A model generated the notes under the pieces. It saw only the letters and a list, made by a program, of their open reading frames with translations. It did not search any database and was not told the DNA's origin. Made by a program: the position numbers and the translations under genes. A DNA stretch of 60,703 nucleotides, the filler included, from Barthelona sp. PAP020 (lineage: Eukaryota): assembly GCA_040182905.1 (NCBI GenBank). It is 5 parts of 5 records of this genome, joined end to end, with 100 filler letters (N's around TTAATTAATTAA, not from the genome) between each part and the next. Parts side by side here need not be neighbours in the genome. Positions count along the whole stretch, not along the records: positions 12,185 to 24,263 come from JARQWU010000353.1; positions 24,364 to 36,416 come from JARQWU010000354.1; positions 36,517 to 48,577 come from JARQWU010000355.1; positions 48,678 to 60,703 come from JARQWU010000356.1; 1 more part is not named here. One strand, 5' to 3'. This document shows positions 15,281-49,831 of the stretch, piece after piece (positions within the stretch are counted from its first letter, which is position 1; the number at the start of each line of letters is the position of its first letter).

Positions 15281-16765
15281 CTAATCATCATCTGTTGATG
15301 AACTATTTTCATCGAATTGATCAAAGTTTCCACCATTGTGAACATTAATTTTACAAAGATCAAATACATTTTCAATAATCTTCTCAAATTCTTCTTCACT
15401 TACACACAAACCAAGACTAACCAAATACCTTTGAACTTTAACATCCAATTTTTCAACAAATGGTAAAATCAAACCACCACCATTCCAAGATTCTTTGACT
15501 AGTTCGTTTGCACATTTTTTAAAAACTTTACCAACGTTGGAAAAAGAACTTTCATTCTCATAAACCCTAATTTTGCTATCTGTACATTTTCCAACCACAA
15601 AATAATTCTCATCAACGCAATCAACACAAAGTGATGACCAATTTCCAATACCAACACCAAACCTTTGTATTATTTCTCCTGTCATGCAATTTATAAGGAG
15701 AACAGTTCCATCATCACAACAACAAACAGCATTAGTGTCATCTTGTGCAATATAAATGTCCCAAATATTACCAACATTCATTTGACGAACCTTGTCACCT
15801 GTTTCCACATTCCAAAATAAAAGTAACCCATCTTCGGCTCCAGACAAGAAGAATTTCCCATCGTGAGTAAATTTCACAGCTCGAATATCACGTCCAGCCT
15901 CATGTGCACAAAAGTTCTTAACGATTGCATAATTGTTATCCAGATCAATCATTTCAATATTGTTATCCTTTCCACACGTTAAAAGGAAATTATTAAACAA
16001 CGCAAAGCGCCATATCCAACTGGTATGGACAAAAACTTCATCAACTTTATTTCCCTGCTCATCAATAATCACGATATTTCCATTAAAATCCGCAACAATA
16101 TACTTGTCCTTGTAGTGTATGACTTCATTCAATCCGCCTTCATGGTTGTAATCCAATAAAACTTCAAAATTTTCAAGACTAACAACTATCATATGCCCAT
16201 TGTTTGAGACATAAACAAAACTTTTACAATCTTCTTTAATCCAAACCTTTCTCACATCACCATCATCAGATATAATCTCATGTAAAACATTGAAATTGTC
16301 TTGAACATCAAATACAGACATCCTACCATTGTCTTGACAAGAAATCATATAGCGGCCATCTTTTGAGCCAATTAGCGCATATAAATACCCACCAGTCATA
16401 TCAAGTTCCCTGTATGAATCTTCTTTTATTGAATTCAAACCAGAATTCAAAATTGCATCAGGATATCGAAAAAAAGACCCAATTAAAGACCTTGTTTCAG
16501 TATTTTTATGGTTGAATAAATATTTAAACGAGCTTTTCAACACATATCTTTTATCTAATAAGAAATCCAAACTTTTTTTCCAAATATTATCAATTAAAAA
16601 CTTCACTAAGGGTTGAATCTTTTGAACATTGTATTCATTGTCACCATTTACTTTTTTCAACAGCTCCAAACTTTTACTATCACTCAAAGTTTCATTACTC
16701 AGTACAGAAATGTTTAAAGCATCCCTATAATATTTTTCAACGGTTTCGTCCACTAATATTTCCAT
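15281..16765 (-). CDS. WD40-repeat protein with shared C-terminal DLxxxNxxNGGN module (divergent copy)
   Basis: WD repeats (HTSWIWRF...LLTCGKDNNI; DIRAVKFTHDGKFFLSGAEDGLLLFWN); tail RYLVSLGLCVSEEEFEKIIENVFDLCKINVHNGGNF; first ATG 16765. Confidence 0.85.
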   Translation of the reverse strand: MEILVDETVEKYYRDALNISVLSNETLSDSKSLELLKKVNGDNEYNVQKIQPLVKFLIDNIWKKSLDFLLDKRYVLKSSFKYLFNHKNTETRSLIGSFFRYPDAILNSGLNSIKEDSYRELDMTGGYLYALIGSKDGRYMISCQDNGRMSVFDVQDNFNVLHEIISDDGDVRKVWIKEDCKSFVYVSNNGHMIVVSLENFEVLLDYNHEGGLNEVIHYKDKYIVADFNGNIVIIDEQGNKVDEVFVHTSWIWRFALFNNFLLTCGKDNNIEMIDLDNNYAIVKNFCAHEAGRDIRAVKFTHDGKFFLSGAEDGLLLFWNVETGDKVRQMNVGNIWDIYIAQDDTNAVCCCDDGTVLLINCMTGEIIQRFGVGIGNWSSLCVDCVDENYFVVGKCTDSKIRVYENESSFSNVGKVFKKCANELVKESWNGGGLILPFVEKLDVKVQRYLVSLGLCVSEEEFEKIIENVFDLCKINVHNGGNFDQFDENSSSTDDD

Positions 16766-17177
16766 TTTAAAATAATTTGACAGTTGAAATGCCCTAAAAA
16801 AAAAATTCTCTGCTTCCTTTTCAGATTCAAGCACTAAATTTTTACTTTTATATTAAGCGCTTTCATTTTCTCTGTGATTAAAATCTCTTTCATGTTTTAT
16901 TCTGGTTGAAGTCTTTGTTCCTTTCAATTGAAAGAAAAAAAATCCATAAAAACAATAAACAATTGGTGATTATTTTATTGAAAATGATATTTATGAGCTT
17001 TTTAATTTTTGGCAACAATAAAAGGAAGAATGAAAGAAAATGGCGAAAATGAAGAGTATAATATTTTGGCTGTAAATAGGAAGAATTGCAAAATATTGTT
17101 GAAAGAAGGAAATTGTCCAAAAACAGCGTCTTGGAAAGAAAATGAACAAGATTTTACATTTTTTTTTTCTGTCGAAT

Positions 17178-17912
17178 ATGGATTTTAAGAGCGTTAAAAT
17201 ACCTTTCAGTTCTGCTTTAAAGAATCACAGGTCAATTAGAAATGGGTATGATGGAAAAAATCGATTTCCAATGGAATTGAGACCCATTTTTTCCAGACAA
17301 GAATATGAAGAAATTACACAGAGATTATCTGATTCAGTTGAAATTCCCAATCCATCTGGTTTGATTTGTTTTTTAGTATGTTGTATTTTTATGGTTTTTC
17401 TTGGTATTATGACAATGGCTTTGGCTATTATTTTTATTGGTGTCTTTATGATTGCTGTTAATATGGCATTGATTATTGGGGGAGTTTCTGGTATTGTGAT
17501 TGCTACCACAAAATTAAATAGTACAGACACGACTGAATTTCAAGTTATTCTTTCTCAACTGAACGGACAGTATTATGATCATAGAATAACTTTTGAAGCA
17601 ATCAACACTTTTAGTGCTGGAGATGATGGTAATTATACTGTAACCATTAAATTTCCTACCAATTTGGATCGTTCAAATAATTTCCAATCATTTAATCAAC
17701 AACGTTCAGGACAAATGATGGGAAATCAGATGGTGGGAAATCAAGTCATGGTTAATCAAATGACTGGCCCTTACAGCGAAATTCCTGTAAATCAACCTTA
17801 TCAAAACCAACCTCAGAATGGATTTGTTGATTATCAACAAAATCAAGCTTCATATTTTAATCCTGACTTTTATCAAAAATCTGATTATAATCCTTATGAT
17901 CCCAATCAATAA
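17178..17912 (+). CDS. Membrane protein with Erf4/Golgin-A7-like N-terminus, hydrophobic hairpin and Q/N/P/Y-rich tail
   Basis: FPMELRPIFSRQEYEEITQRLS resembles the Erf4 helix; ~45-aa hydrophobic segment; alternative ATG at 17142. Confidence 0.55.
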   Translation: MDFKSVKIPFSSALKNHRSIRNGYDGKNRFPMELRPIFSRQEYEEITQRLSDSVEIPNPSGLICFLVCCIFMVFLGIMTMALAIIFIGVFMIAVNMALIIGGVSGIVIATTKLNSTDTTEFQVILSQLNGQYYDHRITFEAINTFSAGDDGNYTVTIKFPTNLDRSNNFQSFNQQRSGQMMGNQMVGNQVMVNQMTGPYSEIPVNQPYQNQPQNGFVDYQQNQASYFNPDFYQKSDYNPYDPNQ

Positions 17913-18487
17913 TTTGCATATAAAATAAACAAATGTTTCAAAATTTACATTTTTTTTCCTTTGTACAAAACGTTTTAAACTTTCCAAACTTTAGAATTGA
18001 CGCCTCATTAATTATTGAATAATAGACCTTTGTCTCTATTCATATCTGAAGTTGGCAGTTCAGCGTTTCTTTCAGGAACCTTTCAGGTATAACTCTTTTA
18101 TTTCATAGACTTTCCCATGCTAGGAGGGCTGTCCTGTCCGGTGTGTGAAATTTTTGCAATACTAATTGTTCAAAAGAAACGAAAGGCTTTGATATTCTTG
18201 AAATTCTTCCAAAATGTACAAGATTTCCTGCGGTTCACTTTTAAATTGTTAAAATTTTCGAAAAGTTGATGGTAAAGTTTCGCATTTAAGGAAAAAAGAA
18301 AGGACAGGAAATTTTGATCCTGCAAAAATAATCGCATTGTAAACAACTCTGATTTTCTTTTTTTTTTTTGAAGAAAAAAGAAACTTGTCAACGACACATC
18401 TTTACAATAAAAAATCTCAAAAACATAAATGAAAGAAGAACACATGTAAAGGAAAACAATTGTGAGGAGATACGAATTTGCATGTTC

Positions 18488-19669
18488 TTAAGTTTCACTG
18501 TCATCATCATCTTCATTCATACCATCATTCTTATTGATAAAATTATGCATATTACCACCATTAATCTCGTTAACATCAATTAAATCCCAACATGAGTCAA
18601 CAATCATATCATATTCCTCTTGATTCATAAACACTCCCGCGGCTACCAACTGCCGAATGTCATTTATGTCAAACTTTAGATCAATAACACTAGCTAAAAC
18701 AAACTCTTTCTCTTTTGACAATTTCACAAGTTCGGTTTGCTGTGTCAAGTTGCATGAAACAGGGTACACTTTTAAAATGTTATTTTCACAAGTTCCACAT
18801 GCCAATTGAGTTAGATCAGGTGATATGGCAAAGGAAAACCAAGTACCATCATCATTAAAGCGAATTCTTTGAATCTCTCGATAAGTATTAACGTTATATG
18901 AAGTAATATATCCATCATCTGAGATGATGAGCAAAATAGAAGATGTTAAAAAATGAACATTCCATGCACATCCTCCCAAATGAAAAACTTGAAGAAGCGA
19001 TCCATTCTCAGTATTCCACAGTTTAACAGTATCAGCTTCATCTCCAACAGCAACAATACTTTTGGTTGGATGCAAATCCATACCCCTTACACATGCTTCT
19101 TGATTAAATGAAGAAATAACAGAAAAATTATCGATATCAATCAATTTAACAAGTTTATCATTGCTTCCACTCAAAATATATTTACCACAGCCTGAAAGTT
19201 TCAAATTTGTAATCCAACTGGAGTGAGTTTTTGATTCTAAGATAACATTTCTGTTAGTCACATCCCATTTCTTAAGATTTGCACCATAATCCCCAGAGTA
19301 CAGGTAATTTGAACAAGGAGAAAAACGAATAACACAAAAAGGATCTTCATTCCTCATAACACCTAATTTTCGAAAATCTTTAAGACTGTAAATAATAATT
19401 TGAAGATCATCAGAACATGTTGCCATCAATTCTCCGTTTGGTGAAAAAGAAATTGATGTAATACTGCCCATATGATCCATCAAAGTTCGATTCAATTCAC
19501 CTGTTTTTGCATCAATTACATGTAATTCTGCAAAACTTCCAAGCACTAAATACTCGCCATTTAGTGAATATGCACATGTATATGTGGAATCAGAAAGAAT
19601 TCCTTCAATTTCTCTAACTCCTTTTTCATCAATTTGATAATGTTGAATTTCACAAATATTTTCCTTCAT
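18488..19669 (-). CDS. WD40-repeat protein with shared C-terminal CWDLxDxNExNGGN module
   Basis: About 7 WD repeats (HMGSITSISFSPNGELMATCSDD; LKKWD; VKLWN); tail IRQLVAAGVFMNQEEYDMIVDSCWDLIDVNEINGGNM. Confidence 0.9.
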   Translation of the reverse strand: MKENICEIQHYQIDEKGVREIEGILSDSTYTCAYSLNGEYLVLGSFAELHVIDAKTGELNRTLMDHMGSITSISFSPNGELMATCSDDLQIIIYSLKDFRKLGVMRNEDPFCVIRFSPCSNYLYSGDYGANLKKWDVTNRNVILESKTHSSWITNLKLSGCGKYILSGSNDKLVKLIDIDNFSVISSFNQEACVRGMDLHPTKSIVAVGDEADTVKLWNTENGSLLQVFHLGGCAWNVHFLTSSILLIISDDGYITSYNVNTYREIQRIRFNDDGTWFSFAISPDLTQLACGTCENNILKVYPVSCNLTQQTELVKLSKEKEFVLASVIDLKFDINDIRQLVAAGVFMNQEEYDMIVDSCWDLIDVNEINGGNMHNFINKNDGMNEDDDDSET

Positions 19670-20272
19670 CAATTCTCTTCTTAAGCTCAAACACATAAAT
19701 AACTTATTGATAAAAGAAAATTCTGTTCATTTTCTCGAAAAATCTGTTCTTTTCCTTTTCTAAGCACTATTTTTTTTGATTTTCCACATTGGATTTTTGC
19801 TTTTTGACAGAATAAATGCACTTTTTTTTTGTTGAAACCATTCTTCACGGTTTTTTCTATAATTTTTTTGAAATTTTTTCACACAGTTGACAACACAATA
19901 AACTCCATCAAAATGATAAATTACCTTTTATGTGAACCAACAAATATGCAAAAAATAAGAACAACTAATTTCATCTCCTAATTACGAAAACCCTTTGGAA
20001 TTATTGCCCCTAGAATACTATGAACTAAGTTCAAGCTCAGTAATCATAAAAATGTAAAAAAGAAAAAATACTAAAAATTTTTACGGTCGAAGAATTCTCA
20101 CAAAAATTTCCACATGTGCATCTTTAACATATTTCAAGGTCATTATTTTTTTAATGCCATTATTTCTGGATAAATTCATGGATTTACATTTTTCAAAATC
20201 AGAGAAGCCAAAAAGACAATATTTTTCGAAACACATAAATATTGCACTTTGTTGTCCGTAATTTACATATTT

Positions 20273-21421
20273 TTAATCATCATTTTCACTGTATTCACAA
20301 CCAGAAAACACATGTAGATTTCCCCCAGTGGATTGGTTTATGTCAATTAAATCCCAGCAATCATCAATAATCATGCAATATTCCTCTTGATTCACCATGA
20401 TTCCTGAGCTCACAAGCTGTCTAATGACAGAAGTATTTATACCCATTGATTTAAGAACTTCAATAACATAACCACCATTCTTTGACAATTCAATAAGCTT
20501 TGAATGAACTGAAGAGTTGTATAATGGCACAATTGAATAAACTTTAATAGTATTATTGGGACATTTTCCACAGCTTAACTTCCTTTTGTCGGGTGATATT
20601 GCAAAAGAAAAATGATAATTTTCACAACCACAAAAAAACCTTTGAATCTGTTGAAAAGCATTTATGCTGTATGACGTAATGTAACCATCACCAGACATGA
20701 CAAGTAGGATGTTGGATGTTAAGAAATTAAGACGCCCACGTGGACCACATACATCAAATGTACGAATGAGGTTTGCATCATTCAGATTCCAGAGACTGAC
20801 TTCGTTTGTCCAATCAATCACAGCAATTATTGTATCTGTTGCATTAAAGTCAATATCAACAATTCTGTCTTTTCCACAAAAAGTTTGAAAGATGAAGAAA
20901 GAATCAGGGTCAATTAAATTCACCGTTTTATCAAAACTTCCACTCAAAAGATATTTCCCATTTGAAGAAGTTGTTAATTTACAAATATTACTGAAATGAA
21001 TTTTTGCTTCCAAAACAATAGTATTCTTATGTAGGTCCCATTTTTTAAGATTTCCATTCTTGTCTCCGATAAAAAGAAAATTAGAACAATGAGAAAAACA
21101 AATTGCATCAACAACTTCATCCAACAATATTTTATACGCTGAAAAATCTTTAATGTTGTATATAAATACAGACTTACCATATGAATAGGTAGCACACATA
21201 TTCCCATTTGGAGAAAATGCAATAGCAGCAACGTGAAATCTATGATCTGTTAATGTAAGAAGTGGTTCTTCAGTTTCAACATTAAATACATGCATCTTAC
21301 CAAATCCACTGCAAATTACCAACTTTGTACCATCCATTGAATATTCACAATCATAAATACTCCAAGAAATCACATCTTCAATAATCTTCTCATTTTCCTC
21401 CTGGATTTGCCAGGACAACAT
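20273..21421 (-). CDS. WD40-repeat protein with shared C-terminal module; tandem paralogue of 18488..19669
   Basis: Colinear similarity to neighbour (NLKKWD, GKYLLSGS, DGYITSY, FSFAISPD); tail IRQLVSSGIMVNQEEYCMIIDDCWDLIDINQSTGGNL. Confidence 0.9.
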   Translation of the reverse strand: MLSWQIQEENEKIIEDVISWSIYDCEYSMDGTKLVICSGFGKMHVFNVETEEPLLTLTDHRFHVAAIAFSPNGNMCATYSYGKSVFIYNIKDFSAYKILLDEVVDAICFSHCSNFLFIGDKNGNLKKWDLHKNTIVLEAKIHFSNICKLTTSSNGKYLLSGSFDKTVNLIDPDSFFIFQTFCGKDRIVDIDFNATDTIIAVIDWTNEVSLWNLNDANLIRTFDVCGPRGRLNFLTSNILLVMSGDGYITSYSINAFQQIQRFFCGCENYHFSFAISPDKRKLSCGKCPNNTIKVYSIVPLYNSSVHSKLIELSKNGGYVIEVLKSMGINTSVIRQLVSSGIMVNQEEYCMIIDDCWDLIDINQSTGGNLHVFSGCEYSENDD

Positions 21422-21660
21422 ATCATGAATCTCTTTCCAAATCGATTCTTTCCTAGTTTCAACAAGTATTGGTTTATCGTCAGGAAAAAAATATTAAATT
21501 GGGGAAATGATCCTTTTTGTAATCATTAAAAGGTGTTCACTTTTGAAAGAATTGAACAGGTTGCTGGAACATTTTGCAAAAAAATAAAGAGAAAATCGTT
21601 TTTATTCAATAGAATAACTTAAACCACATTTAATTCACAAATAAAGCAACTTATTGATGT

Positions 21661-22530
21661 TTAATATGATTCAGCATCTTCAATTTCTAATTGTACCGTG
21701 AATCCGTCAACTCCTAATTGCATTCCTTCGACTAATCGGTCTTCAAATTCTTTATGAGTAACATAATTACTCAAATGTGTGAGAACAGCCTTTTTAGCAT
21801 TCATTTTTTTGAACATTTCTTCACATTCAGTCAATGTGGGATGATTACTGTGGGGTGGAATATTGTAAAAGTCCAACACTACCATATCAACGTCCTGCAA
21901 AACTTCATAAGCATGATCCGGCAAGACTTTTATATCTGTCAAATAAGCAAGGGGTCCAACTCTAAACCCTATCACAGCACCACTTTGTCCATGTGATCCA
22001 AGAATTGTTTCAAAGGCCAAACCTGCAATAATAATTGTTGAACTTGGTTCAAATTCCCTCAAATTTAAATTGGGTGTTCCTGTATTGGCATTTTTACCCG
22101 AATTAAAACAATAGTCAAATTTTTTCAAAATATTGTTTACGTGTAAATTTGAACAATGAACATTTATACAAGGGGATTTTCCAGCCTTTTCCATCAAAAA
22201 ACACAGCAATCTCAAATCATTCATTCCAAGAATGTGATCAGCATGATCATGTGTGATAAATACACCATCACATCTTGTTATGCAATTGGTTGGATATGAA
22301 TAGCCATAATCTTCTTTGTAAGGATTTTGAAGTTGATGCATCAAATCAGGTCCAACATCAATAAGGATTGTTCTTCCATCTTCCATATTCCTTAACATTG
22401 CGCCAGGTCTTCTTCTATGATCTCTTGGATCTTCTGACCACATTTCAGGTATTCCTAACACTGGATTCAATTGTGAAGAACCAGTACCTGTCAAAATAAA
22501 TTCCCATTTTGTTTTTTTTCCGTTTGTCAT
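21661..22530 (-). CDS. Metallo-beta-lactamase-fold hydrolase, PhnP-like phosphodiesterase
   Basis: LTGTGSS, ILIDVGPD, THDHADHILG (HxHxDH), SHG...GFRVGPLAYLTD, LTHLS; first ATG 22530. Confidence 0.88.
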   Translation of the reverse strand: MTNGKKTKWEFILTGTGSSQLNPVLGIPEMWSEDPRDHRRRPGAMLRNMEDGRTILIDVGPDLMHQLQNPYKEDYGYSYPTNCITRCDGVFITHDHADHILGMNDLRLLCFLMEKAGKSPCINVHCSNLHVNNILKKFDYCFNSGKNANTGTPNLNLREFEPSSTIIIAGLAFETILGSHGQSGAVIGFRVGPLAYLTDIKVLPDHAYEVLQDVDMVVLDFYNIPPHSNHPTLTECEEMFKKMNAKKAVLTHLSNYVTHKEFEDRLVEGMQLGVDGFTVQLEIEDAESY

Positions 22531-22800
22531 AAATATAAAAATAAAAAGTACTTGATAATAAAAAAAAATATAACATAAGTACAAAACAAAAAGTTGAACA
22601 ACACCACAAATTTTCTTTTCTGGATTAGATTAATTATAAACGCACATTTAAATAGTAATTCTTAAACTTCATACATCCAATAAGTGTTTCAGAACACAAA
22701 AGAAAAATCTTCAATTCAATTTAATATTTCATCAATGGATGATTTGAGTTATTTTTAAGCTTAATCATTATATTATAGTTAAAAACACACATATTAGGAA

Positions 22801-24105
22801 ATGATATTGATTTGTTCAATTTTACGAAATTATTTATGTTTCATTCCATCTATTTTAATAACTACTTATTTAAATAATAAATCTTATAAAATGTTGTCAA
22901 ATTTTGGTTCTGTTCAGACGATCTACGTGTTATTTAATATTTTTCAATTTATTTTTTTGACCTCTTTGTCTGAAATTCATGATTTGAAGGATAATAAAAG
23001 TTTGAAGAAGTATATATTTTTTAAATATTTGACTTCATTAATTGCTGGTTTCTTTTCAGTTTTCATCATTTATTTCATTGTAAATCCGTTTTATTTTCGA
23101 TACATTGTGGTTGATTCAAAAACTTTGGATAGTCTTTTGATTAAAAAATGTTTATTTATTCGTGTTTGCTTTATTCCATTCACTTTCTTTTGTAATTTAT
23201 CCACGAGAGTTTTGCAATCACTCAATTCAATTTTTGCTTCTCTTGGAATTCGTTTAATGAATTGTAGTTTGGTTTTTTTTATCACTTTATATGATTTTGA
23301 CTTGACACAAATTTGTTATTTATTAGGTTTTGCCGATATTGCAACAAGTATTGTTGGTATTTTCATCGTGTTGTCCTTATTACAAACACATTCTGACGCT
23401 TCTTTGAGTTGTTCCAAAATTTTTACAGATTCAAATTTAGATTCTGTGCAAGACCCATTAAGGTTTAAATTTGCATCTGGCATTTTTTTTCGCTCATTTA
23501 TGACCCAAATTGTATATTTTGCTTTTGGAATTGTGTGCAATCAACATAATTGTATCGGGAATTTTCAAATATTGATGCAATATTGGTTATTTCCAGCACA
23601 TTTTACAGATGGAATGGGTGAAGGAATAATTACCAAAGTATCACAAAGTAGAGATGATTTACATACATTAAAGACTGAGTTCTTTTATTTTTTGAAGATT
23701 TTTTTCTTCTATTCATTATTCCTAGTCACTTTATTAAATTTTGTCACGTTTATTCTGGGATCTTTTGATATTAATTTTTATTTTCTCATTTTTTTCAGAA
23801 TTTTTTCGGTTGATGCTTATGCTTTTGAAGATTTTTTGGTCGGTCTTAAAATGTATCACAAAATCAATTTTGGTTTGTGTTTTGGCATTGTATTCTCTGC
23901 CATTTTTATTTTTTTTCAATTGTCTCTTTTCAAAAAAGATTTGTTGATAACATTATTTTATGGTTTCCTCATATCTGATTATATTAGAATGATTTTTGTT
24001 GTTTGTTTTATATATTTTGCTCTTCAAAAAAAGTCAAATTCAGATTACATTCCTTTAATTGATCCAATTTCAAATGTTGATTGTGATTTTCCCACAAAGT
24101 TGTAA
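22801..24105 (+). CDS. Polytopic membrane protein, divergent MATE (DinF-like) transporter
   Basis: Many hydrophobic segments; IFFRSFMTQ...NFQILMQYWLFPAHFTDGMG resembles DinF-type HQIxxQxWxFxxxxxDG. Confidence 0.55.
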   Translation: MILICSILRNYLCFIPSILITTYLNNKSYKMLSNFGSVQTIYVLFNIFQFIFLTSLSEIHDLKDNKSLKKYIFFKYLTSLIAGFFSVFIIYFIVNPFYFRYIVVDSKTLDSLLIKKCLFIRVCFIPFTFFCNLSTRVLQSLNSIFASLGIRLMNCSLVFFITLYDFDLTQICYLLGFADIATSIVGIFIVLSLLQTHSDASLSCSKIFTDSNLDSVQDPLRFKFASGIFFRSFMTQIVYFAFGIVCNQHNCIGNFQILMQYWLFPAHFTDGMGEGIITKVSQSRDDLHTLKTEFFYFLKIFFFYSLFLVTLLNFVTFILGSFDINFYFLIFFRIFSVDAYAFEDFLVGLKMYHKINFGLCFGIVFSAIFIFFQLSLFKKDLLITLFYGFLISDYIRMIFVVCFIYFALQKKSNSDYIPLIDPISNVDCDFPTKL

Positions 24106-24263
24106 ATAATTATTTATTTTTTTTTTTATATTAGCCAGTTTTTTTCAAGAAAAAAATTGCTTGCACTATTAAAAGATTCACTGTCACATATATTTGTTTC
24201 ATATTTTCTTTTTTCTTTTTTTTTTCTTTTTATGAGAGTATGTTTGAAGTAAAAAAAAAAAAA

Positions 24264-24363
24264 NNNNNNNNNNNNNNNNNNNNNNNNNNNNNNNNNNNNN
24301 NNNNNNNTTAATTAATTAANNNNNNNNNNNNNNNNNNNNNNNNNNNNNNNNNNNNNNNNNNNN
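24264..24363. other. Artificial 100-bp contig spacer
   Basis: N run with central TTAATTAATTAA. Confidence 0.97.
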
Positions 24364-24364
24364 T

Positions 24365-24478
24365 TACATGACTAAGACTTCAGATAAGGGTGCTCGTATG
24401 CTCACTCCTGCTGGTCGTAAATTCTGTGATCAAATTGCTGTTAAGGTTCAAAAACAAAGACCTGTTATTCCTTTCTAA
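24365..24478 (+). CDS. RPS19: 40S ribosomal protein S19 (eS19), 3' fragment
   Basis: YMTKTSDKGARMLTPAGRKFCDQIAVKVQKQRPVIPF* matches the eS19 C-terminal G-R-x-L-T-P-x-G-x-x-x-x-D-x-I-A motif. Confidence 0.75.
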   Translation, partial: YMTKTSDKGARMLTPAGRKFCDQIAVKVQKQRPVIPF

Positions 24479-28606: not shown

Positions 28607-28641
28607 TTTCACCAATTTGTTAAAATCAATTTTTTACCAAA

Positions 28642-36516: not shown

Positions 36517-37188
36517 ATTAAAGAAACAAACTGATGCTCAAATGAATTTCCTCTCTAATGAAGTTGAAAGAGAAATTGAAAACAATGAACGTTTGACTTC
36601 TCAAAACCGTTTATTGGATCAAGAATTAGATGAAGAAGTTGAAACACATCTCAAATTCCAAGAATATCATAAGAATGAGATTGAAAATCTATCGAACAGA
36701 TTAATGAACGAACAATTGAGGCACAACGAGAATGTCAATGATTTAGAAGGTCAATTGAATAATGAAAGATACAGACATGAGCAAGAAGCTGAAAATCTCA
36801 ACAATAAGTTAGATTTAGCAAGAACCAAGTTTGATAAATTAAAGAAACAAACTGATGCTCAAATGAATTTCCTCTCTAATGAAGTTGAAAGAGAAATTGA
36901 AAACAATGAACGTTTGACTTCTCAAAACCGTTTATTGGATCAAGAATTAGATGAAGAAATTGAAACACATCTCAAATTCCAAGAATATCATAAGAATGAG
37001 ATTGAAAATCTATCGAACAGATTAATGAACGAACAATTGAGGCACAACGAGAATGTCAATGATTTAGAAGGTCAATTGAATAATGAAAGATACAGACATG
37101 AGCAAGAAGCTGAAAATCTCAACAATAAGTTAGATTTAGCAAGAACCAAGTTTGATAAATTAAAGAAACAAACTGATGCTCAAATGAA
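36517..37188 (+). repeat. Near-perfect 321-bp tandem repeat (2 units plus partial third)
   Basis: ATTAAAGAAACAAACTGATGCTCAAATGAA recurs at 36517, 36838 and 37159; one visible difference (GTT/ATT, V/I). Confidence 0.95.
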
Positions 37189-38581
37189 GGTAAGAGACCT
37201 TTCTACCAAGGATAAACATGCTATTGATGAAGAAAATGATAACAGTTTTATGGTGATGAAATATTGTGAAGAAAACAATCTCCTGAAAGATGAGATTGAG
37301 AAAGAAAGAAAATTATGCAGCGCTTTGAAGGCAGAAAACTTAAAGTTGGAAAAGCATTTTAAAATTAGTGATAGATTGGCCAGTGATTATCGTAGTATAT
37401 TTGAGTTGTGCAACAAACAGAAACAAACCATTTTTTCACTAAAAAACACTTTGCGATCTCAAGTACAGCAAACAGAAAATTCTAAAAAAATTTGTTTGGA
37501 ATGGAAGCAAAAGTATAATCTGTTGTTGAGTGAAATAGATGGATTGAAGAAGGCACCAATTTTAAGAGAAGATGATGATGATGATGATGAAGTTTATGAG
37601 GATGAAGTTTATGAGGAAGAAGAAGTTGATGAAGAAGTTGATGAAGAAGTTGATGAAGAAGAAGAAGAAGAAGAAGAAGTTTCTGTGGATGAAGATGATG
37701 ATGATGATTTTTTTAGCAAAAAAAGACTTGAACTGCTTAAAAACATTAAATTTCCAAATAAATTATCGTTCTATGTATTTCAAAATTTTTATGAAAGAGA
37801 AATCAATGAATCTTCAGCAATTTTGAATATTTTGCTAAAATATAGGGAAAATGATATTCAAGAAATAAAAAATATCTTTCTTACTTTATTTTCTAAGAAT
37901 TTTAATAATATTCAATCATCTACAAATAATCAAAGTATTGAAGATTATCCTATAAACATTGTTTTGTATGTATGTTTTGGATTTCTTATCCTTTCTAATT
38001 CAAATATTGATAATAATCAAACATTTAAATCATTTAATACCTCAGAAACTTTGGAAACTTTTGAAATTTTAGAAATTTTGGAAAACTTTTCAAAAATTTC
38101 TGATTTCAATGTACATACAAAAGATTTTGGTAAAAATGTTCTTGAATATTCAATTGTAACATTAGCAATATGTTTGAATGTTGCTGAAGAAACTTTATTT
38201 CCATATTTCTCTTTATTAGGATACAAAAAAATAAATTTGAAACAATTTTCAAGTATTTATACACAAATCAAGGAAAACTCATTCATTTTTTCCACAACAA
38301 GTTTTAAAAATTTGATAAAATTCCCAAAATTTTTCAAAATCTTATATAGCAGATTAAAACTGAAAACTACTGATAAATCAAAAAAAAATAGCTCTATTCT
38401 AACCGGCACGAATATACATTCCGCGATGAATTCGCTTTTTCCAACATTACAAAAAAGTTTTATAAAGTCGATTGGATCCTCTTTAAGAACTTTTATTGTA
38501 ACTGAATATAAAGATTATTTAAATTTAAAAATTATGGATAATCCTTTATTAATAGAAAAATTTGATACTGTAAATATGTGA
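36517..38581 (+). CDS. Coiled-coil repeat protein with acidic tract, 5'-truncated
   Basis: Frame open from contig edge; 107-aa tandem units, D/E run, unrecognised helical C-terminus. Confidence 0.75.
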
Positions 38582-40373: not shown

Positions 40374-40649
40374 ATTATATTTGAAGTTTGAGTTAAAAAA
40401 AAAAGTTCTTAACTTTAATTAAAATCTTTTTGAACTGTTTTGTTTGTGTTAAATTAAAATGTAAAAATCACATAAAACACCATCAATATTTATCAAAACA
40501 AAATCGAAAGTTACAAATAAAAATTACTTTCTCTTTTGTTTTTAAAAATTAGTTTTTAAATTAACCATTTATATAATGCATAAAAAAGCATAAATAACAA
40601 TAAAAAAACCATGAAAAATTCATTTATAACAAAAAACGAGTTTTTAGAA

Positions 40650-41594: not shown

Positions 41595-41808
41595 TATATT
41601 TTATAGGACAAAGAAAAATTATTTTGTTTTTGATCACAGTAATTTTTTTTAATTTTTGAAATTTCATGACTGATAAAACAATTGTTATTAATATCAATTA
41701 AAGTTATTCCAAAAAAAAGCACAGAAATAAATTTTTTTTTCAATTTTGATGGTTGGATTTTTCAAATAATTTTTTATTTCTTGTCTAAGAATCAATATTC
41801 ATATGAGA

Positions 41809-41915
41809 AGTCCCTCAATTCATCCTTATAGTTTTGGTTGAAATTATTTGAATGTGTTTTTTGAATCTACTTTATCCATATAAAAAATTATGTTGTTTCA
41901 CAGCTGGACCAATTT
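41809..41915 (+). repeat. Dispersed ~105-bp non-coding repeat, copy 1
   Basis: Starts AGTCCCTCAATTC, ends TGTTGTTTCACAGCTGGACCAATTT; colinear with 47804..47909. Confidence 0.8.
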
Positions 41916-42018
41916 TTCTTTATTGTACAAATATAGGGAAAAAATATTTACTTTAGCTGTTTTCATTCAGGGAAATATTTCAAAAAACAAACAAACAATT
42001 ATTTACAAAGAAATAGTA

Positions 42019-43509
42019 CTAATCATCAGCATTACTCTCGTCACTCTTTTCATCTTCCATCTCTTTATCAATGTACTGACGCATATTGCCACTATTTCTT
42101 TCATTTAAGTCGATCAAATCCCAACAAAAGTTGATGGACATGTCAAAATCTTTTTGATTCATGTAGACTCCAGCACCTACAAATTCGCGAATGATGATAC
42201 TGTTTGCCTTCATTACAACAAGTGTTGATACAAGATAACCCTCATTCTTTACCAATTCAATTAACTCAGATTTAGATAAATGCTCAAATTTTAGATCCAC
42301 AGGTTCACTATTGTCCAATTGTTGGTTTAAGTTGAGACAGCTCAAAATGCGGTATTCATTATTCATTTGCCATTCCTCATCACTTGTATATAATCTGTTG
42401 AAAAACAACAGCATATCTACACCATTTATGTTTATTTCGGGACAATCTAGAAGCATTTTGGCAATGTAAAGATGACCATAGAAACAACAAATGTATAATG
42501 GAGAAAATCCATCATTATTGCACATATTAACATCAGCTCCATGATTCAAGAGCATTTTGGCAACATCAAGATGACCTTTTTGACAGCTGATGTATAATGG
42601 AGAAACACCATTCTTTTTGCATAAATTAACATCAGCACCATTTTCCAAGAGCATTTTGGCAATATCAATATGACTATATTGACAGCTGTTGTATAATGGA
42701 GAAGCACCATTATCATCACACAAAGAAAAATCAGCTCCATGATCTAAAAGCATTTTGGCAATGTCAAGATGACCTTTTTGACAACTGATGTACAACGGAG
42801 AAGCACCATTCTTTTTACACAAATTAATTTCAACTCCATGATTCAACAACATTTCGACAACATCCAGATGACCATTTTTACAGCTGATATACAATGGAGA
42901 AGCATTATTAATATCACACAAACTAACATCAGCTCCATGATCTAAGAGCATTTTGGCAACATCAATATGACCTTTTTGACAACTGATGTACAAAGGAGAA
43001 ACATCAATATTATCACTCAAATCAACATCAACTCCATGATTCAACAACATTTCGGCAATATTAAGATGCCCATTTTGACAGCTGATATACAATGGAGAAA
43101 TACCTTCTTTATTACTCAAATCAACATCAACCCCATGATTCAGTAACATTTTAGCAACATCAAAATGACTATTTTGACAGCTGATATACAAAGGAGAAGT
43201 GCCATCTTTCATACACAAATTAACATCAGCCTCAAAATCCAACAAAAACTCAACAACGTTGATATGCCCATTGAAACAAGCTCCATACAGCGATGTCCTT
43301 CCATCCTTACCCTGTTTGTTCACATCAACGCCAGCTTTAATACAATGCTTGACAACCTCCAGATTTCCATCACATGATGCATAATACATCTTCTTTGCTT
43401 GACCATCATCTTCAAACCCATCCACTTCAAACGCATCTGGAACAAAAACTTGATCCATATTATGTTTAGCATAAGTGTCAATTTCCTCAACTGTACTATT
43501 GACAACCAT
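42019..43509 (-). CDS. Ankyrin-repeat protein (10 repeats) with shared C-terminal module
   Basis: 33-aa units SPLYISCQxGHxDxAKMLLxHGADV; tail IREFVGAGVYMNQKDFDMSINFCWDLIDLNERNSGNM. Confidence 0.93.
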   Translation of the reverse strand: MVVNSTVEEIDTYAKHNMDQVFVPDAFEVDGFEDDGQAKKMYYASCDGNLEVVKHCIKAGVDVNKQGKDGRTSLYGACFNGHINVVEFLLDFEADVNLCMKDGTSPLYISCQNSHFDVAKMLLNHGVDVDLSNKEGISPLYISCQNGHLNIAEMLLNHGVDVDLSDNIDVSPLYISCQKGHIDVAKMLLDHGADVSLCDINNASPLYISCKNGHLDVVEMLLNHGVEINLCKKNGASPLYISCQKGHLDIAKMLLDHGADFSLCDDNGASPLYNSCQYSHIDIAKMLLENGADVNLCKKNGVSPLYISCQKGHLDVAKMLLNHGADVNMCNNDGFSPLYICCFYGHLYIAKMLLDCPEININGVDMLLFFNRLYTSDEEWQMNNEYRILSCLNLNQQLDNSEPVDLKFEHLSKSELIELVKNEGYLVSTLVVMKANSIIIREFVGAGVYMNQKDFDMSINFCWDLIDLNERNSGNMRQYIDKEMEDEKSDESNADD

Positions 43510-44803
43510 TTTCTGTAAAAAAAAAGAAATAAAAAGACCAAGTGCTGATGATTTTTCTTTAAATATTTATCCCTCAATCAGTGCTTATTTTGAAGTAGCC
43601 GTTACTATAATGAAATGTGATGGTTGATTAGAATTGTTTATGGAAAACTTTTCAATGTTCTTTAATTCTTTCTTGAAATTTTCTATTTCGAATTGATACC
43701 CAATTATGTTTTCGATATTGATTTAAACATTGTGAAAATGTCACAAAATTTTGAACGTTTGTCGTGATATTGTTTATTCGAATATTTATGTCAAACGACA
43801 TTCTTCCAAATCATTTTTACCCATTTGTTGATTGATTTTGTGGTGGTGTTGATATATTTTTGATCAAGAGATTTATAAAGTGAACTTACAAAGTATTTTA
43901 CAAATGAATCAAGTCTCTTTGTTTTCTATTGAACACCCCTTTTTAATTTCTTTCATTCTGTAACAATGAATAGTTAAAAACAACTACATACAAGATTAAT
44001 ACTTTGAACATGTCTTCAATTTCCTTCACAATGAGAGTCTCCAAAGTTGGGTTTGTGTACCAACCTTCAATTGAAATAAATAAAAGCAACATCATTTATA
44101 ATTGATATTTTTTGTTCTTGCTGATTTAAACACAAAAAATTGGTACTACAAAAACAAGAATTAGACAAGATAAAAGTATAGTGAATTTCAGTCTGGGAAA
44201 ACAATAACCTAAAAACTCATTTTAAAATATTATAGTCAAAGAAATAAGTGCTTCAAATTCAATTTTGATGATCAAAAATGGAAATTTTTGTATCAGTTAA
44301 AAAACATACATCATATTTAAAAGAAGTCAACCATAAATTTCGACTGAAATCTCAGAAGAGGCAATTGGGTGAAATTCAATTGTGAAAAATGTTTTCCATC
44401 TTTACTTTAACTTATGAAAATATGAAAGTTTGAACAGATCAAAATACTCTTGAAAGCCTTCATATCAAGGCAATTCATAAAATAATAATCATTGACAATG
44501 GCAAAAATTCATCTCGTAATTCATTAAAGGTTTCCACTCTATTAACAACTCAGATCGCAAAAACAAGAGGACAAATGGTTTGAGATGTCCAATTTCTCAA
44601 ATCATTTGAGTGTTTTGGTTTCATTTCATTAGAGGATGATTGATGTTGTTTTTACATGTGAAGTGACTCTGTGGTTGAAGAACAGTTTGAAAATGTATTA
44701 AATGATGAAATGAAAATGTGTGTTAAATTTACAAGTTGCAAAACCTGAGAAGTGATGTGAAACATGTGACAACAGATGATAGTGCAAAATAGAAGGTCGG
44801 ATT

Positions 44804-46957
44804 TTACAAGTCTGAAGCAAGGAATTCTTGGATTGGGGTATTATTCGAAAAATTGTAACTACCGCTACACAACAAACGAGTTCCATCATGGTTGAGGGCC
44901 ATAGTATAAATATAAAAAGATACAGGTACTTTCTGCAACACTTGACCTGTTTCTCTTCGAATCACAGCAAATGATTTGTCAGAAGAACCAGAATAGATCA
45001 ATGAAACATCTTGGGAGAAGATAATAGAGTATATCCAATCATCATGAACCTTATACTTTCCCAGCAACTTTCTAGATTCAACATCAAATATCCTGATTGT
45101 ACCACCTTGATCACCTGTCCCCCAATAAGCACCATTAGGGGAGAAGTTGCCTGATGTGACATCGTTACCATCATGACTCCACGTGTGAAGCTCTTCATAC
45201 ATCTCCAATGAAAACAACTTTGAACATCCAACATCGCTGACAGAAGCAAAGTACTTCATATCGGGGCTGATACGTACAGATCGAACATAGTTTTCATGAG
45301 GTCGAAATTCATGCAACTTCTGTCCTTCGACCGTGTATATCACAATGAAACCATTATCCATACCAAAAGAAAGCAATTTGCCATCTGGTGAAAACCAAAC
45401 ACGCTTTACATTTGCCATGCCCCTAATCACTCTTACTGTTTTCCAAGTATCAACTTCAATAATATGAATTGCTGGACCATAACCACTAACACCCAAAAGT
45501 TTGGAGTCTGGACTAAAATTGAGACCAAGAGCCTTCAAATATTCCCCTTCATGCACAATTTCATGTGTTTCAGCGTTGTAGACTCTGAGTAATTTACTAT
45601 TATGTCCTACAACCGCAAAAAAGCGTCCATTAGGGCTGTAATCAAGGGCAAAAACCATTTTATCACGAAATTCCTCACTAAACTCAGGCCTTTCTCCAAA
45701 TCTTTCGACTGCACGAACAATTTGCTTTCTATTTTCAACATGTTGTTTTATATCATCGCGGTTCACAAGTTCATTCAACTGGTCAGTTAAATCAGTTGAA
45801 ACAAGTTGTTTTCCCTCATTGTTATTCATAAGTTCATTCAATTGGCTTGCCAAATAATTGATTTGATTTGTTAATTCTTGCTTTTTATTCATCCATTTCT
45901 CTTTTTCTTCTTTCAACTCACCGTTTTCATCAGTCAATTCTTGAACCCTTTCCACATATCCCTTTCTTTCCAAAAGCCAACTGTTCTTCTCCTCTTCTAA
46001 AGTCGCAACTTTCTTCACCAACCTCTTCTCGTCAAATCCCAACCCCTCAAAACGCTCAATCAACATCTGCAAATACTCAGTAATCTCACTGAACGTTGGC
46101 CTGGCATATGCCTCAACAGTCAAACACCTCTTGATGATTCCAAACCCAGGTATTGTGTCCAATAATTCCTTGCTATATGGAAGATGTCCTTTACCCAATT
46201 GAAAAATGACTTTCAACTCACTCAACCCTTCAAAAGGAACCAAACCAGATACTACTTGAGCCAACATTACACCAAAAGACCAGGCGTCAACAGCTGTTCC
46301 TATTATGTTCTCCTCTTCATTGGCCAACTCAGGAGCAGCATATCTCGCAGCACCCATCATAGAATTGGCGGAGCTCCTACCCGTATCACGAACAAGCCCA
46401 AAATCAGCAATTGCTGGAATATACGTCCCATCTACTCCATGTCTCAATAAAACATTGTTAGGCTTAAGATCTCTATGCATAACACCTTTCTCATGACAAA
46501 ACTCAAGCGCAGATGAAACCTGCATCATAATAACCAACTTCTCCTTCAAAGATAATTCTGGTATCATATCTTCAAGAACTGCATCACAATACTCCATAAC
46601 AACACCTTTCTTTCCATCAATCTCGGTAATTCCAAAGACTTGTCGAATAAATGGGTGATTTAGAACAATAGGAAAACATTCCTTGGTAAGTTCAACATCA
46701 GTAATATTTTCAATAAAGAATTTTATAACAACAAGCTTTTCATATCTCTTGCCAAGATGCAAAAAGCCAAAACCGCCCATTTTGAAATTAAATTTAACTA
46801 TTTCAAACTCACTTCCAGCTATATTGATGTCATTCGCTTTCAAAAAATTATCTAATTTTTCAAAAGCATCTTCGTCTGGTTCTTTAACAATTTTTCTACG
46901 TTTCTTTGCACGTTGTTCAAGTTCGTGTGACCCTTGGTTTTCCTCAAAGGTGAACAT
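44804..46957 (-). CDS. Protein kinase (TKL-like) - coiled coil - WD40 propeller protein
   Basis: MGGFG, VVIK, HRDLKPNNVLL, DFG, YAAPE, DAWSFG; E/K-rich coil; about 7 WD repeats; N-terminal RAKKRRK. Confidence 0.92.
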   Translation of the reverse strand: MFTFEENQGSHELEQRAKKRRKIVKEPDEDAFEKLDNFLKANDINIAGSEFEIVKFNFKMGGFGFLHLGKRYEKLVVIKFFIENITDVELTKECFPIVLNHPFIRQVFGITEIDGKKGVVMEYCDAVLEDMIPELSLKEKLVIMMQVSSALEFCHEKGVMHRDLKPNNVLLRHGVDGTYIPAIADFGLVRDTGRSSANSMMGAARYAAPELANEEENIIGTAVDAWSFGVMLAQVVSGLVPFEGLSELKVIFQLGKGHLPYSKELLDTIPGFGIIKRCLTVEAYARPTFSEITEYLQMLIERFEGLGFDEKRLVKKVATLEEEKNSWLLERKGYVERVQELTDENGELKEEKEKWMNKKQELTNQINYLASQLNELMNNNEGKQLVSTDLTDQLNELVNRDDIKQHVENRKQIVRAVERFGERPEFSEEFRDKMVFALDYSPNGRFFAVVGHNSKLLRVYNAETHEIVHEGEYLKALGLNFSPDSKLLGVSGYGPAIHIIEVDTWKTVRVIRGMANVKRVWFSPDGKLLSFGMDNGFIVIYTVEGQKLHEFRPHENYVRSVRISPDMKYFASVSDVGCSKLFSLEMYEELHTWSHDGNDVTSGNFSPNGAYWGTGDQGGTIRIFDVESRKLLGKYKVHDDWIYSIIFSQDVSLIYSGSSDKSFAVIRRETGQVLQKVPVSFYIYTMALNHDGTRLLCSGSYNFSNNTPIQEFLASDL

Positions 46958-47803
46958 GGAAAAAAAAAATTCAACTTGTGAAGTGCAGGGGTTTTTTTCT
47001 TGCAGAAGACCAACTTTTCAACTCCCGAAGGAATTAACCTTTGTTTGATTCGGATTAGTGATCAAATCTAATTTGATGGAAAAATTTAAAATCGAAACTT
47101 CTTTATTCTGAAGCCACGCAGCCACACTCTTGCAGTACCCTAAAGAAGTGGTGCTGAGACATCGTTGCTCCCAGTCATTCGCTGAATAAGAAGCCAGGCA
47201 GTCAAATTTCTTGGTAACTGCCGTTCTCTTTTTTTTTTAATTTTGAGAGCCGTGGAGGTTCCCTTACATCTAGTCGTTTCTTTCATGGTTTGATTATTTT
47301 CTCCCAAACCATAGAGTTGTAAAGTTCATGTTTTATTATTACAAGAAAAAAATGATGATGAAATGTTGAAATGAATTTTTTCAACTTCTATTTTAGCTTT
47401 CAATTAGATTTCAATTTATTATCCAATTCAAAAAATAGTGTGATATTTTGTTCCATATTTGTTATTTATCTTGAAAGGATTCTTTTTAAAAGAAATTTGA
47501 TTTTTGATTTCCAAACGTGGTTTTAAAACCGTGGAACTTATAAATATTAACATCATTCAAAATATGTTTTCAGAAAGTTTTTTGTTGATATTATTTCCAA
47601 GCCAAGAAGCACTGTGCGCCCAAGTTAATAAAAAAAATGGTGTTTATTTGGTTAAAGGCTTTCGAGGCCTGATTGATCTTTTGAAAACCTTTAGATTTTC
47701 GAAGGATGTTCAAATTTAAAATTTTGCTTTTACAAAAATATTAAAAAATAGGAATGAAGAATTTCTCCGAAATTCTCCTACTTGATCGTTCAAATTACAT
47801 TTC

Positions 47804-47909
47804 AGTCCCTCAATTCCCCCTGGGATTTTGACTGAAATTTGCCAGAATGAGTTTTCTGAGTTTACTTTCTTTGTAAATAAATATTGTTGTTTCACAACTG
47901 GACCAATTT
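47804..47909 (+). repeat. Dispersed ~105-bp non-coding repeat, copy 2
   Basis: AGTCCCTCAATTC...TTTTGACTGAAATTTGC...TGTTGTTTCACAACTGGACCAATTT. Confidence 0.8.
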
Positions 47910-48311
47910 ATTGGGGATATAAAGAGGTCATCAAATATCACTTCCTTTATTTGTTGTTTCTTGACCATCTTTAGGTCCAATTTTTTAAGTTACTTGGGCA
48001 TCTGAATCCACGTAAATTTTCCCCAAACCTTAGGCTAACTCGTTTCGTTATTCATTGAACAACTCATACTTCATAAATATCTAATAAAATTCCACTATTA
48101 TTTATTTATTTATTTTTTTTAGTTTAAAAATAAAAATAGTAAAATTTTTATTTTATTTGTTTATGTAAAATATATAGTTATTTTATAATTATAGTTATAT
48201 TATTATTATTTTTTTAGATATATATAGTTCTCTTTTAAAAATTAAATTTAAGTTTTTGATTTATTTTAAAGAGAATTTTCACATCGTCATCTATTCTAAA
48301 TAAATTTTTAG

Positions 48312-48384
48312 GATCTTGTAGCTCAGTTGGGAGAGTGCCTGCCTAACACGCAGGTGGTCCCGGGATCGAAACCCGGCAAGATCA
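48312..48384 (+). tRNA. tRNA-Val, anticodon AAC
   Basis: Acceptor GATCTTG/CAAGATC+A, D arm GCTC/GAGT, anticodon arm CCTGC-CTAACAC-GCAGG, T arm CCGGG-ATCGAAA-CCCGG. Confidence 0.93.
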
Positions 48385-48577
48385 TTTATGAAAAGGGTCC
48401 AAAAGGAACGAGGATCGAGTCTGTAAAATTCACTCCACAAAATTCACGTTGGACGAAAGGGCAAAATTAAAGGCTTTAATTTCACTCGACAAAATAATAA
48501 ACATTTGATAAAAGCTTTTACTGTTCAAGGTTAGAGTTTGGGTTACTTGTCACTGGTCTGTTGTGCGTAGATTGGTT

Positions 48578-48677
48578 NNNNNNNNNNNNNNNNNNNNNNN
48601 NNNNNNNNNNNNNNNNNNNNNTTAATTAATTAANNNNNNNNNNNNNNNNNNNNNNNNNNNNNNNNNNNNNNNNNNNN
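48578..48677. other. Artificial 100-bp contig spacer
   Basis: N run with central TTAATTAATTAA. Confidence 0.97.
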
Positions 48678-48679
48678 AA

Positions 48680-49831
48680 AATGGTCATGTTGATGTGGCC
48701 AAAATGCTCTTGGATCATGGCGCTGATGTTAATTTGTGTGACAATGATGGATTTTCTCCATTGCACATCAGTTGTCAAAATGGTCATCTTGATGTTACTA
48801 AAATGCTGTTAGATCATGATGCTGATGTTAGTTTGTGCGACAATGATGGATTTTCTTCATTGCACATTGGTTGTCAAAATGGTTATCTTGATATTACCAA
48901 AATGCTATTGGATCATGGGGCTGATGTTAATTTGTGTAAGAATGGTGGATTTTCTCCATTGTTTGTTAGTTGTCAATATGATCATCTTGATGTAACCAAA
49001 ATGCTCTTAGATTATGGTGCTGATGTTAATTCGTGTGATAAGTATGGCTGGTCATCATTGTACATCAGTTGTCAAAAAGGTCATCTTGATATTGCTAAAA
49101 TGTTCTTGGATCATGGCGCCAATATTGATTTGTGTGAGAATAAAGGTATTTCTTCATTGTTCATCAGTTGTCAAAAAGGTCGTCTTGATGTAGTCAAAAT
49201 GCTTTTGGATCATGGGGCTGATGTTAATTTGTGTAAGAAAAATGATACCTCTCCATTGTTTGTTTGTTGTCAAAATGGTCATCTTGATGCAGCCAAAATG
49301 CTCTTGGATCATGGAGCAGATGTTAATTTATTTAGGAATGATGGGTGTTCTCCATTCGATATGAGTTGTTACCAAGGTCATATTAACATTGCCAAAATGC
49401 TTCTGGATTGTCCTAAAATAAACATAGATTGTGTTGATATGCTGTTATTTTTCAATAAATTGCATGCAAGTGATGAGGAATGGAAAATAATGTGGTACCC
49501 AGTTTTGAGTTGTCCCAACTTGAAGAAACAATTGAAAACTGGTGAACCTGTTGATTTGAAATTTGAACATTTTTCTAAATCTGAGTTAATTGAATTGGTG
49601 AAGAATGAGGGTTATCTTATATCAACACTTGTTACAATGAAAGTAAACAGTGGCATCATTCGAGAATTTGTGAGTGCTGGAATCTACATGAATCAAAGAG
49701 ATTTTGATATGTCAATCAACTGTTGTTGGGATTTGGTTGACATTAATGAAAGAAATGGTGGCAATATGCGTCAATATATTGATGAATTGATGGAAGATGA
49801 TGAAAGTGAAGAGAGGTATGCTGATGATTAG
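48680..49831 (+). CDS. Ankyrin-repeat protein with shared C-terminal module, 5'-truncated; paralogue of 42019..43509
   Basis: Frame open from contig edge (NGHVDVAKMLL...); 7 further repeats; tail IREFVSAGIYMNQRDFDMSINCCWDLVDINERNGGNM. Confidence 0.92.
   Translation, partial: NGHVDVAKMLLDHGADVNLCDNDGFSPLHISCQNGHLDVTKMLLDHDADVSLCDNDGFSSLHIGCQNGYLDITKMLLDHGADVNLCKNGGFSPLFVSCQYDHLDVTKMLLDYGADVNSCDKYGWSSLYISCQKGHLDIAKMFLDHGANIDLCENKGISSLFISCQKGRLDVVKMLLDHGADVNLCKKNDTSPLFVCCQNGHLDAAKMLLDHGADVNLFRNDGCSPFDMSCYQGHINIAKMLLDCPKINIDCVDMLLFFNKLHASDEEWKIMWYPVLSCPNLKKQLKTGEPVDLKFEHFSKSELIELVKNEGYLISTLVTMKVNSGIIREFVSAGIYMNQRDFDMSINCCWDLVDINERNGGNMRQYIDELMEDDESEERYADD

Follow-up and report, generated by a model that had tools for sequence, protein, structure and literature searches.

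The present study concerns a 60,703-nucleotide stretch of DNA from Barthelona sp. PAP020 (GenBank assembly GCA_040182905.1), hereafter the window, in which three WD40 proteins and two ankyrin-repeat proteins end in the same tail. We find that this tail is a real, undescribed and lineage-expanded C-terminal domain of a known design, i.e., a constant module behind a repeat domain. It is probably a docking module to some common partner. Barthelona is described as a free-living anaerobic metamonad, and 6,305 predicted proteins are given for Barthelona sp. PAP020 in Table 1 of the same source (PMC11316075). The window consists of five contig pieces of ~12 kb with N44-TTAATTAATTAA-N44 as the joiner. 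The WD40 genes (W1, W2 and W3) lie together on piece 2 (12185-24263), whereas the ankyrin genes A1 and A2 lie on pieces 4 and 5, respectively. The five genes and their tail domains are as follows:

15281..16765, minus strand: W1, WD40 protein of 494 residues with an extra N-terminal region of ~100 residues and a divergent tail
15314..15514, minus strand: W1 tail domain, 67 residues, then a 10-residue acidic end (E 3.8e-11 with a profile that omits W1)
18488..19696, minus strand: W2, WD40 protein with tail, 402 residues
18539..18742, minus strand: W2 tail domain, 68 residues, then a 16-residue acidic end
20273..21421, minus strand: W3, WD40 protein with tail, 382 residues, tandem paralogue of W2
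20306..20509, minus strand: W3 tail domain, 68 residues, then a 10-residue end
42019..43509, minus strand: A1, ankyrin-repeat protein of 496 residues with nine Pfam Ank stretches, a linker of ~56 residues and the tail
42073..42276, minus strand: A1 tail domain, 68 residues, then a 17-residue acidic end
48678..49831, plus strand: A2, ankyrin-repeat protein with tail, 5' end lost at the contig start
49574..49777, plus strand: A2 tail domain, 68 residues, then a 17-residue acidic end; the copy used for folding

Shared tail of WD40 and ankyrin proteins

All ten pairwise alignments among the five tails outscored every one of 2000 shuffles. A profile built from the W2 and W3 tails, the most similar pair of WD40 tails, and run against 1193 six-frame segments of the window retrieved the A2 tail (E 1.4e-25) and the A1 tail (E 3.3e-23); WD40-linked and ankyrin-linked tails thus align significantly. 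The reverse profile, from the ankyrin tails, found the WD40 tails in the same segments at E 5e-21 and 1e-20. Even the divergent W1 tail was recovered by a profile built without it (E 3.8e-11). No sixth copy was found by profile search of the six-frame segments of the window, where the next match had an E value of 0.6.

Previously, a sequence-only reading of this window had proposed a block of ~60 residues with an acidic tail, present in five copies on three contigs and unrecognised. All five blocks are found where it had placed them, each closing its open reading frame (ORF), and they do occupy three contigs (pieces 2, 4 and 5). The block and its acidic end are real, but the core comprises 67-68 residues rather than 60. 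The proposed consensus describes the divergent copy at 15281-15505 only loosely. As a whole, that interpretation is partly supported.

W1 is identical to the EukProt protein P0007, and its extra ~100 N-terminal residues (16405-16765) have no Pfam match. W3 is 43% identical to W2, and A1 and A2 are close paralogues (66% identical). The tail is reached via a short linker in the WD40 proteins and via one of ~56 residues in the ankyrin proteins. Upstream of the W3 ATG (21421-21530, minus strand), the frame still encodes the N-terminal helix of the family, and the next in-frame ATG above the W3 start has a stop after it. W3 may therefore have a shortened start or be a decaying gene.

Predicted fold and conservation

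In the five window copies, the core of 67-68 residues is followed by 10-17 mostly acidic residues. With a 17-row alignment, AlphaFold2 predicted a compact arrangement of five helices (predicted local distance difference test score, pLDDT, 83.6; predicted template modelling score, pTM, 0.71), located at residues 7-14, 20-26, 31-39, 46-65 and 71-82 of window:49559-49813. With only 5 rows, the model had been of low quality (pLDDT 62). Seven positions (R35, V38, G41, L59, N63, G68 and N69), several of them polar or glycine, are invariant in all 33 tails of the family described below, and six more (C56, W57, D58, D61, G67 and M70) are the same in at least 90% of them. Helix 1 is the least fixed part; in P0040, a protein of 998 residues in which a weak kinase-like region precedes ankyrin repeats and the tail, the match begins at profile position 20. 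The acidic end holds at least five D/E in the last 12 residues of 24/29 family proteins.

Conservation was compared among 27 WD40 paralogues, W1 and the N-truncated P0012 being excluded. Mean identity was 52% in the tail and 41% in the propeller, and the tail was the more similar of the two in 326 of 351 pairs. Positions invariant at the 96% level or above numbered 11 of 69 in the tail vs 12 of 274 in the propeller. The ratio of non-synonymous to synonymous substitution rates (dN/dS) of the tail is ~0.3 in both A1/A2 and W2/W3; therefore, the tail is under purifying selection.

Searches with the 17-row model yielded no confident structural relative. Foldseek against PDB gave 0 of 89 rows at E <=0.001 (best E 1.9), and several of the weak rows were TRPV ankyrin domains with a root-mean-square deviation (rmsd) of ~11. 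The viral structure library gave 0 of 175; a second look with VIA gave a best Z of 2.2 (rmsd 3.9, 80 aligned). VIA over 48,161 chains found none at Z >=5, the best being Z 3.4 (rmsd 4.1, 75 aligned); the rows were mostly helical-repeat proteins, and the best 50 held no SOCS-box, F-box, UBA or bromodomain entry. By these comparisons, the predicted fold can be called neither different from known folds nor new.

Alternatively, the tail could stabilise or dimerise these proteins as a structural cap or self-association domain, with no outside partner, and might derive from an ankyrin repeat that has degenerated. Helix 3 and the following G-hydrophobic-x-M-N turn stand in register with the outer helix and GADVN turn of the ankyrin repeats in the window (hhalign, 15 columns, P 0.11). 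Among the invariant residues G, N and D are frequent, which would often be structural, and the dN/dS of the tail equals that of the repeats. However, an ankyrin origin of the tail is not supported by the profile test, in which 0/33 tails scored above the 95th percentile of shuffles against a narrow profile of 19 family repeats, and none had a Pfam Ank match. Besides, a cap fitted to one fold should fail behind both propellers and ankyrin stacks, whose linkers to the tail differ in length. We consider a cap quite unlikely.

Family size and distribution

Two profile searches of a collection of 5.8 billion proteins returned 16 and 33 matches, which correspond to 35 different proteins, all from EukProt. 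In the second search the weakest match had an E value of 1.2e-13, and nothing lay beyond it up to E 5. The source organism was checked for 19 of the 34 named matches and was Barthelona sp. PAP020 in all 19; the 35th match is W1. Counting one isoform per Trinity gene together with the window copies, we obtain at least 33 tail genes, of which 29 encode WD40 proteins, 3 ankyrin proteins and 1 (P0040) a kinase-like plus ankyrin protein. In all 33, the tail lies within ~22 residues of the C-terminus. This bears out the expectation of the sequence-only reading that the family would be large and not limited to the five copies. P0036, which is a WD40 protein, falls in the same Trinity component as the ankyrin isoforms.

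The number 33 is a floor: the word search scored only 7,990 candidates, and the second search missed two known members. For four of the five window tail proteins, none of the relatives retrieved exceeds 52% identity. Since known members were missed and window proteins lack close retrieved relatives, the family is likely several times larger. Confinement to one organism is provisional, as the collection may simply lack Skoliomonas and other barthelonids.

Elsewhere, a single-tail protein search gave 0 of 41 candidates, and scanning for DNA patterns brought up no relative among metagenome stretches (32), viral stretches (44 and 18) or prokaryote genome contigs (32). No tail relative was found in plasmids by tblastn. 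NCBIfam and PHROGs gave only single-member matches, at E 0.02 or worse. Among the barthelonid papers listed, no title or abstract opening describes the tail family. The main text of PMC11316075 makes no mention of WD40, ankyrin, ubiquitin or cullin, and its readable supplements, which were not searched for WD40 or ankyrin, contain no Skp1, cullin, elongin, F-box or SOCS.

Known boxes and domains

The Cul5 box carries an LPxP motif, and the first helix of an F-box carries LPxE. In PMC4878042, the BC box is given as (S,T,P)Lxxx(C,S,A)xxx-hydrophobic, the Cul2 box as hydrophobic-Pxx-hydrophobic-xxx-hydrophobic. Each of these four patterns occurs in 0/17 tails, in agreement with the earlier judgement that no convincing BC-box, cullin-box or F-box is present. 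Nor did any tail match Pfam SOCS_box, VHL, F-box, PRANC, bromodomain or ankyrin among 17 tails and 33 cores, in scans whose HMMER filters remove the majority of matches weaker than E 0.1. No Pfam family at all reached its cut-off in these two sets; the module does appear unrecognised. The tail has five predicted helices vs three in the SOCS box. On its sequence features, the tail does not count as a canonical box of either the SOCS/VHL or the F-box kind.

Alternatively, the tail may be a genuine SOCS/VHL box (Elongin C) or F-box/PRANC (Skp1) that has diverged far and bears a lineage-specific extension. Helix 1 carries LxxL[SV][KR] in 16/17 tails, and helix 3 shows the hydrophobic spacing of the Cul2 box, its Pro replaced by D/N/K, also in 16/17, both patterns having been loosened after the data were seen. 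SOCS-box clusters of the ESM Atlas (0.84, 0.82) offered a lead, but they appeared only with the ankyrin context and were lost with the tail alone, and this lead was rejected. Furthermore, glycines break helix 1 where a BC box continues, and helix 1 is unmatched in P0040. Together with the absence of the published consensus motifs and of the Pfam families, these points make a diverged box very improbable. When the tail was modelled in complex with Skp1 and Elongin C stand-ins taken from metagenome contigs, the score was 0.01; as alignments were not used and the tail fold was uncertain, this speaks neither for nor against binding. Separately, a contig of a giant-virus metagenome-assembled genome in IMG/VR bears an Elongin C-like gene (L001:343-633) that is 55% identical to L087, which itself matches Elongin C in PDB; it is either a viral gene or host contamination.

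WDxR is a propeller motif of DCAF proteins, the receptors of DDB1-Cul4, although DCAFs without it exist. It occurs in 1/27 WD40 paralogues, which only lowers the claim of a DCAF. A bromodomain was also tried and rejected: a BAZ2B match faded from E 0.51 (5 rows) to 0.85 (17 rows) to none (33 cores), and the PMD motif, a bromodomain feature, is present in 0/17 tails.

The sole Pfam family that recurred was UBA_BIRC2-3, found in 4/15 tails (tail residues 21-62, model positions 8-49 of 53; best 19.4 bits vs a cut-off of 27.2) and in 6/33 cores (best E 5.7e-4; all recorded scores under the cut-off). The tail could contain a diverged UBA-like three-helix core that is made of helix 2, an M-G/N/K-hydrophobic turn, helix 3 and the start of helix 4 and binds ubiquitin itself, which would make the family ubiquitin readers or shuttles instead of ligase adaptors. 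A loosened UBA turn pattern fits 15/17 tails, although it was written after the alignment had been seen. UBA domains have an MG[FY] loop between helices 1 and 2; this loop is found in 0/17 tails, MGI and MGV occurring in two. All scores, moreover, stay below the family cut-off. Most invariant residues lie past the best-fitting part, in the GGN turn and the second, C-terminal half of helix 4, and predicted helix 4 is 20 residues long, about twice the usual UBA helix. A ubiquitin-binding UBA core is therefore improbable.

A probable docking role for the tail

Our preferred reading, which we hold at somewhat less than an even chance, is that the tail is a lineage-specific docking module, SOCS-box-like in its manner of use and not a SOCS box by the features tested. 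The repeats would bind different targets, and the tail would bind one common partner. The conserved patch on helices 3-5 (R35, V38, G41, W57-D58-L59, N63 and G68-N69) may be the partner contact, and the acidic end may add an electrostatic contact. A docking role is probable because a separately folding domain is kept behind unrelated repeat folds and is conserved above the repeats; it stands at the very C-terminus in three architectures (WD40, ankyrin and kinase-like plus ankyrin). The common partner could be ubiquitin machinery, most likely a ubiquitin-ligase machine. That the ubiquitin system supplies the partner, as the analogy with ASB/WSB, KLHDC10, ANK-PRANC and the Giardia ankyrin-RING proteins suggests, is close to, but short of, an even prospect; that the one Pfam family to recur, UBA_BIRC2-3, is ubiquitin-associated counts in its favour.

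Several points weigh against this reading. As many as 29 of the 33 members represent one WD40 subfamily, and all matches come from one organism's data. At the codon level, A1/A2 and W2/W3 give no sign that the tail is held harder than the repeats (dN/dS of tail vs repeats 0.32 vs 0.40 and 0.33 vs 0.35, respectively). Nowhere except in a 16-codon acidic end does dN/dS exceed 1, so diversifying 'sensors' are not shown. Giardia, from the sister lineage Fornicata, is reported to be without Skp1 and Cullin1 (PMC7029713), and elongin-based ligases are judged to be recent in animals and fungi (PMC2785787). Domain shuffling is also less extensive than the mixture of architectures might imply. One supported clade unites the tails of A1, A2 and the ankyrin gene from the transcripts (100/97 in one tree, 98 in another); that of P0040 branches elsewhere in the free tree, yet forcing the four ankyrin-linked tails together was not rejected (approximately unbiased test, p-AU 0.74). 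Because the ankyrin tails form a clade and the grouping with P0040 is not rejected, one or two events would suffice. The shuffling proposed by the sequence-only reading, therefore, holds in that the WD40/ankyrin transfer is real, though it is modest. That WD40 proteins were the donor is a guess from member numbers, the tree being unrooted. Finally, the earlier proposal of an adaptor to a ubiquitin ligase or immune-like effector keeps its shared module, with a tail conserved above the repeats, while the partner is one that we infer from architecture alone.

A bolder version of the docking role would make the tail a new substrate-receptor box with its own fold, a barthelonid invention that links at least 100 WD40/ankyrin receptors to a ubiquitin ligase by a route outside Skp1, Elongin C, BTB and DDB1, in a lineage related to Giardia, which lost SCF altogether. 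We regard this as unlikely. The box is constant across dozens of paralogues of a compact metamonad genome and could serve directly as bait for the machine. If the ligase link is true, the SOCS-box design arose again with a different domain; if not, the tail is still an undescribed domain marking a sizeable gene family. The reach of either outcome is limited, as the family is known from one organism.

Gene neighbourhood and other content of the window

Both ankyrin-tail genes adjoin a gene for a kinase-coil-WD40 protein:

44804..46957, minus strand: K1, kinase-coil-WD40, adjoins A1, without the tail
50612..52675, minus strand: K2, kinase-coil-WD40, adjoins A2, without the tail

K1 and K2 are 65% identical; the ankyrin and kinase genes follow one another in tandem on contig 4 and converge on contig 5. 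The tail might accordingly link the repeat proteins to a kinase signalling system belonging to this lineage, and P0040 does join a kinase-like region (residues 1-290, Pfam Pkinase E 0.037) to ankyrin repeats and the tail. However, the DNA of the two neighbourhoods is ~77-80% identical in both genes; they are one duplicated gene pair with changed orientation and hence count as a single case. None of the three WD40-tail genes has a kinase gene beside it, and the kinase-like part of P0040 has no significant similarity to K2 (E 1.1). Docking onto kinases has very little likelihood. The catalytic-loop and DFG positions of P0040 look degenerate by eye, and its kinase-like part is likely a pseudokinase fused to ankyrin repeats and the tail.

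A non-coding element of ~90-110 bases occurs in three copies around the ankyrin/kinase pairs (41809-41915, 47804-47914 and 49975-50063; 74-76% identical), with no Rfam match at the gathering score. Between A1 and A2, the synonymous rate (dS) is 0.28 in the tail, over 68 codons only, vs 0.57-0.64 in the repeats and linker; gene conversion of the two tails is possible.

The window is gene-dense, with ~30% G+C and eukaryotic genes, among which are a HECT ligase, a Ras-family GTPase, ALG11, Sec16 and RPB3. Of 10 window proteins compared with EukProt, four occur there without any difference in sequence. Further features are given below:

1132-11055: HECT ligase of 3307 residues on contig 1, where no tail gene is linked to it; matches CUB weakly
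48312-48384: tRNA-Val(AAC), the sole Rfam match
59604-60194: NUDIX protein, 99% identical (194/196) to a Barthelona sp. PAP020 protein

At the start of contig 4, a 351-base tandem duplication (36517-37188, 99.7% identical) repeats the N-terminus of a coiled-coil ORF (36542-38581) and is either an assembly artefact or very recent.

Comparison with known systems

The SOCS box is described as a three-helix motif of ~40 residues, and the ASB and WSB proteins as a repeat domain with a constant C-terminal SOCS box (PMC3779351); KLHDC10, a VHL-box protein, has the same design (PMC10591846). Like these boxes, the tail is a short helical C-terminal module behind ankyrin or WD40 repeats. In contrast to the SOCS box, it has ~68 residues, five predicted helices, no BC-box/cullin-box consensus and a dispensable first helix, and its conservation is centred on CWDLxDxNxxNGGNM, followed by the acidic end. 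The weak 42-residue match to the UBA of BIRC2/3 (PF21290) in 6/33 tails reflects a helix-turn-helix spacing like that of the UBA loop; the tail differs in scoring below the cut-off, in lacking the MG[FY] loop, in having two further helices and in keeping its invariant residues mostly outside the best-fitting part.

The ANK-PRANC proteins of poxviruses and Orientia, which form multi-copy families, combine ankyrin repeats, a non-ankyrin linker and a C-terminal box (PMC4353913). Their box is a truncated F-box (PF09372), whereas the tail has no Pfam PRANC/F-box match or LPxE, and its members are mostly WD40 proteins encoded by a free-living protist's own nuclear genes. In Giardia, a related metamonad, an expanded ankyrin-RING family of 30 sequences likewise joins ankyrin proteins to a constant C-terminal module (PMC7029713). 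That module is a C3HC4 RING of the ubiquitin system; the tail lacks a RING pattern, and just one of its Cys (C56) is well conserved. No more than four kinds of adaptor for cullin receptors are described, and a survey of cullins predicts further kinds in excavate protists (PMC2785787).

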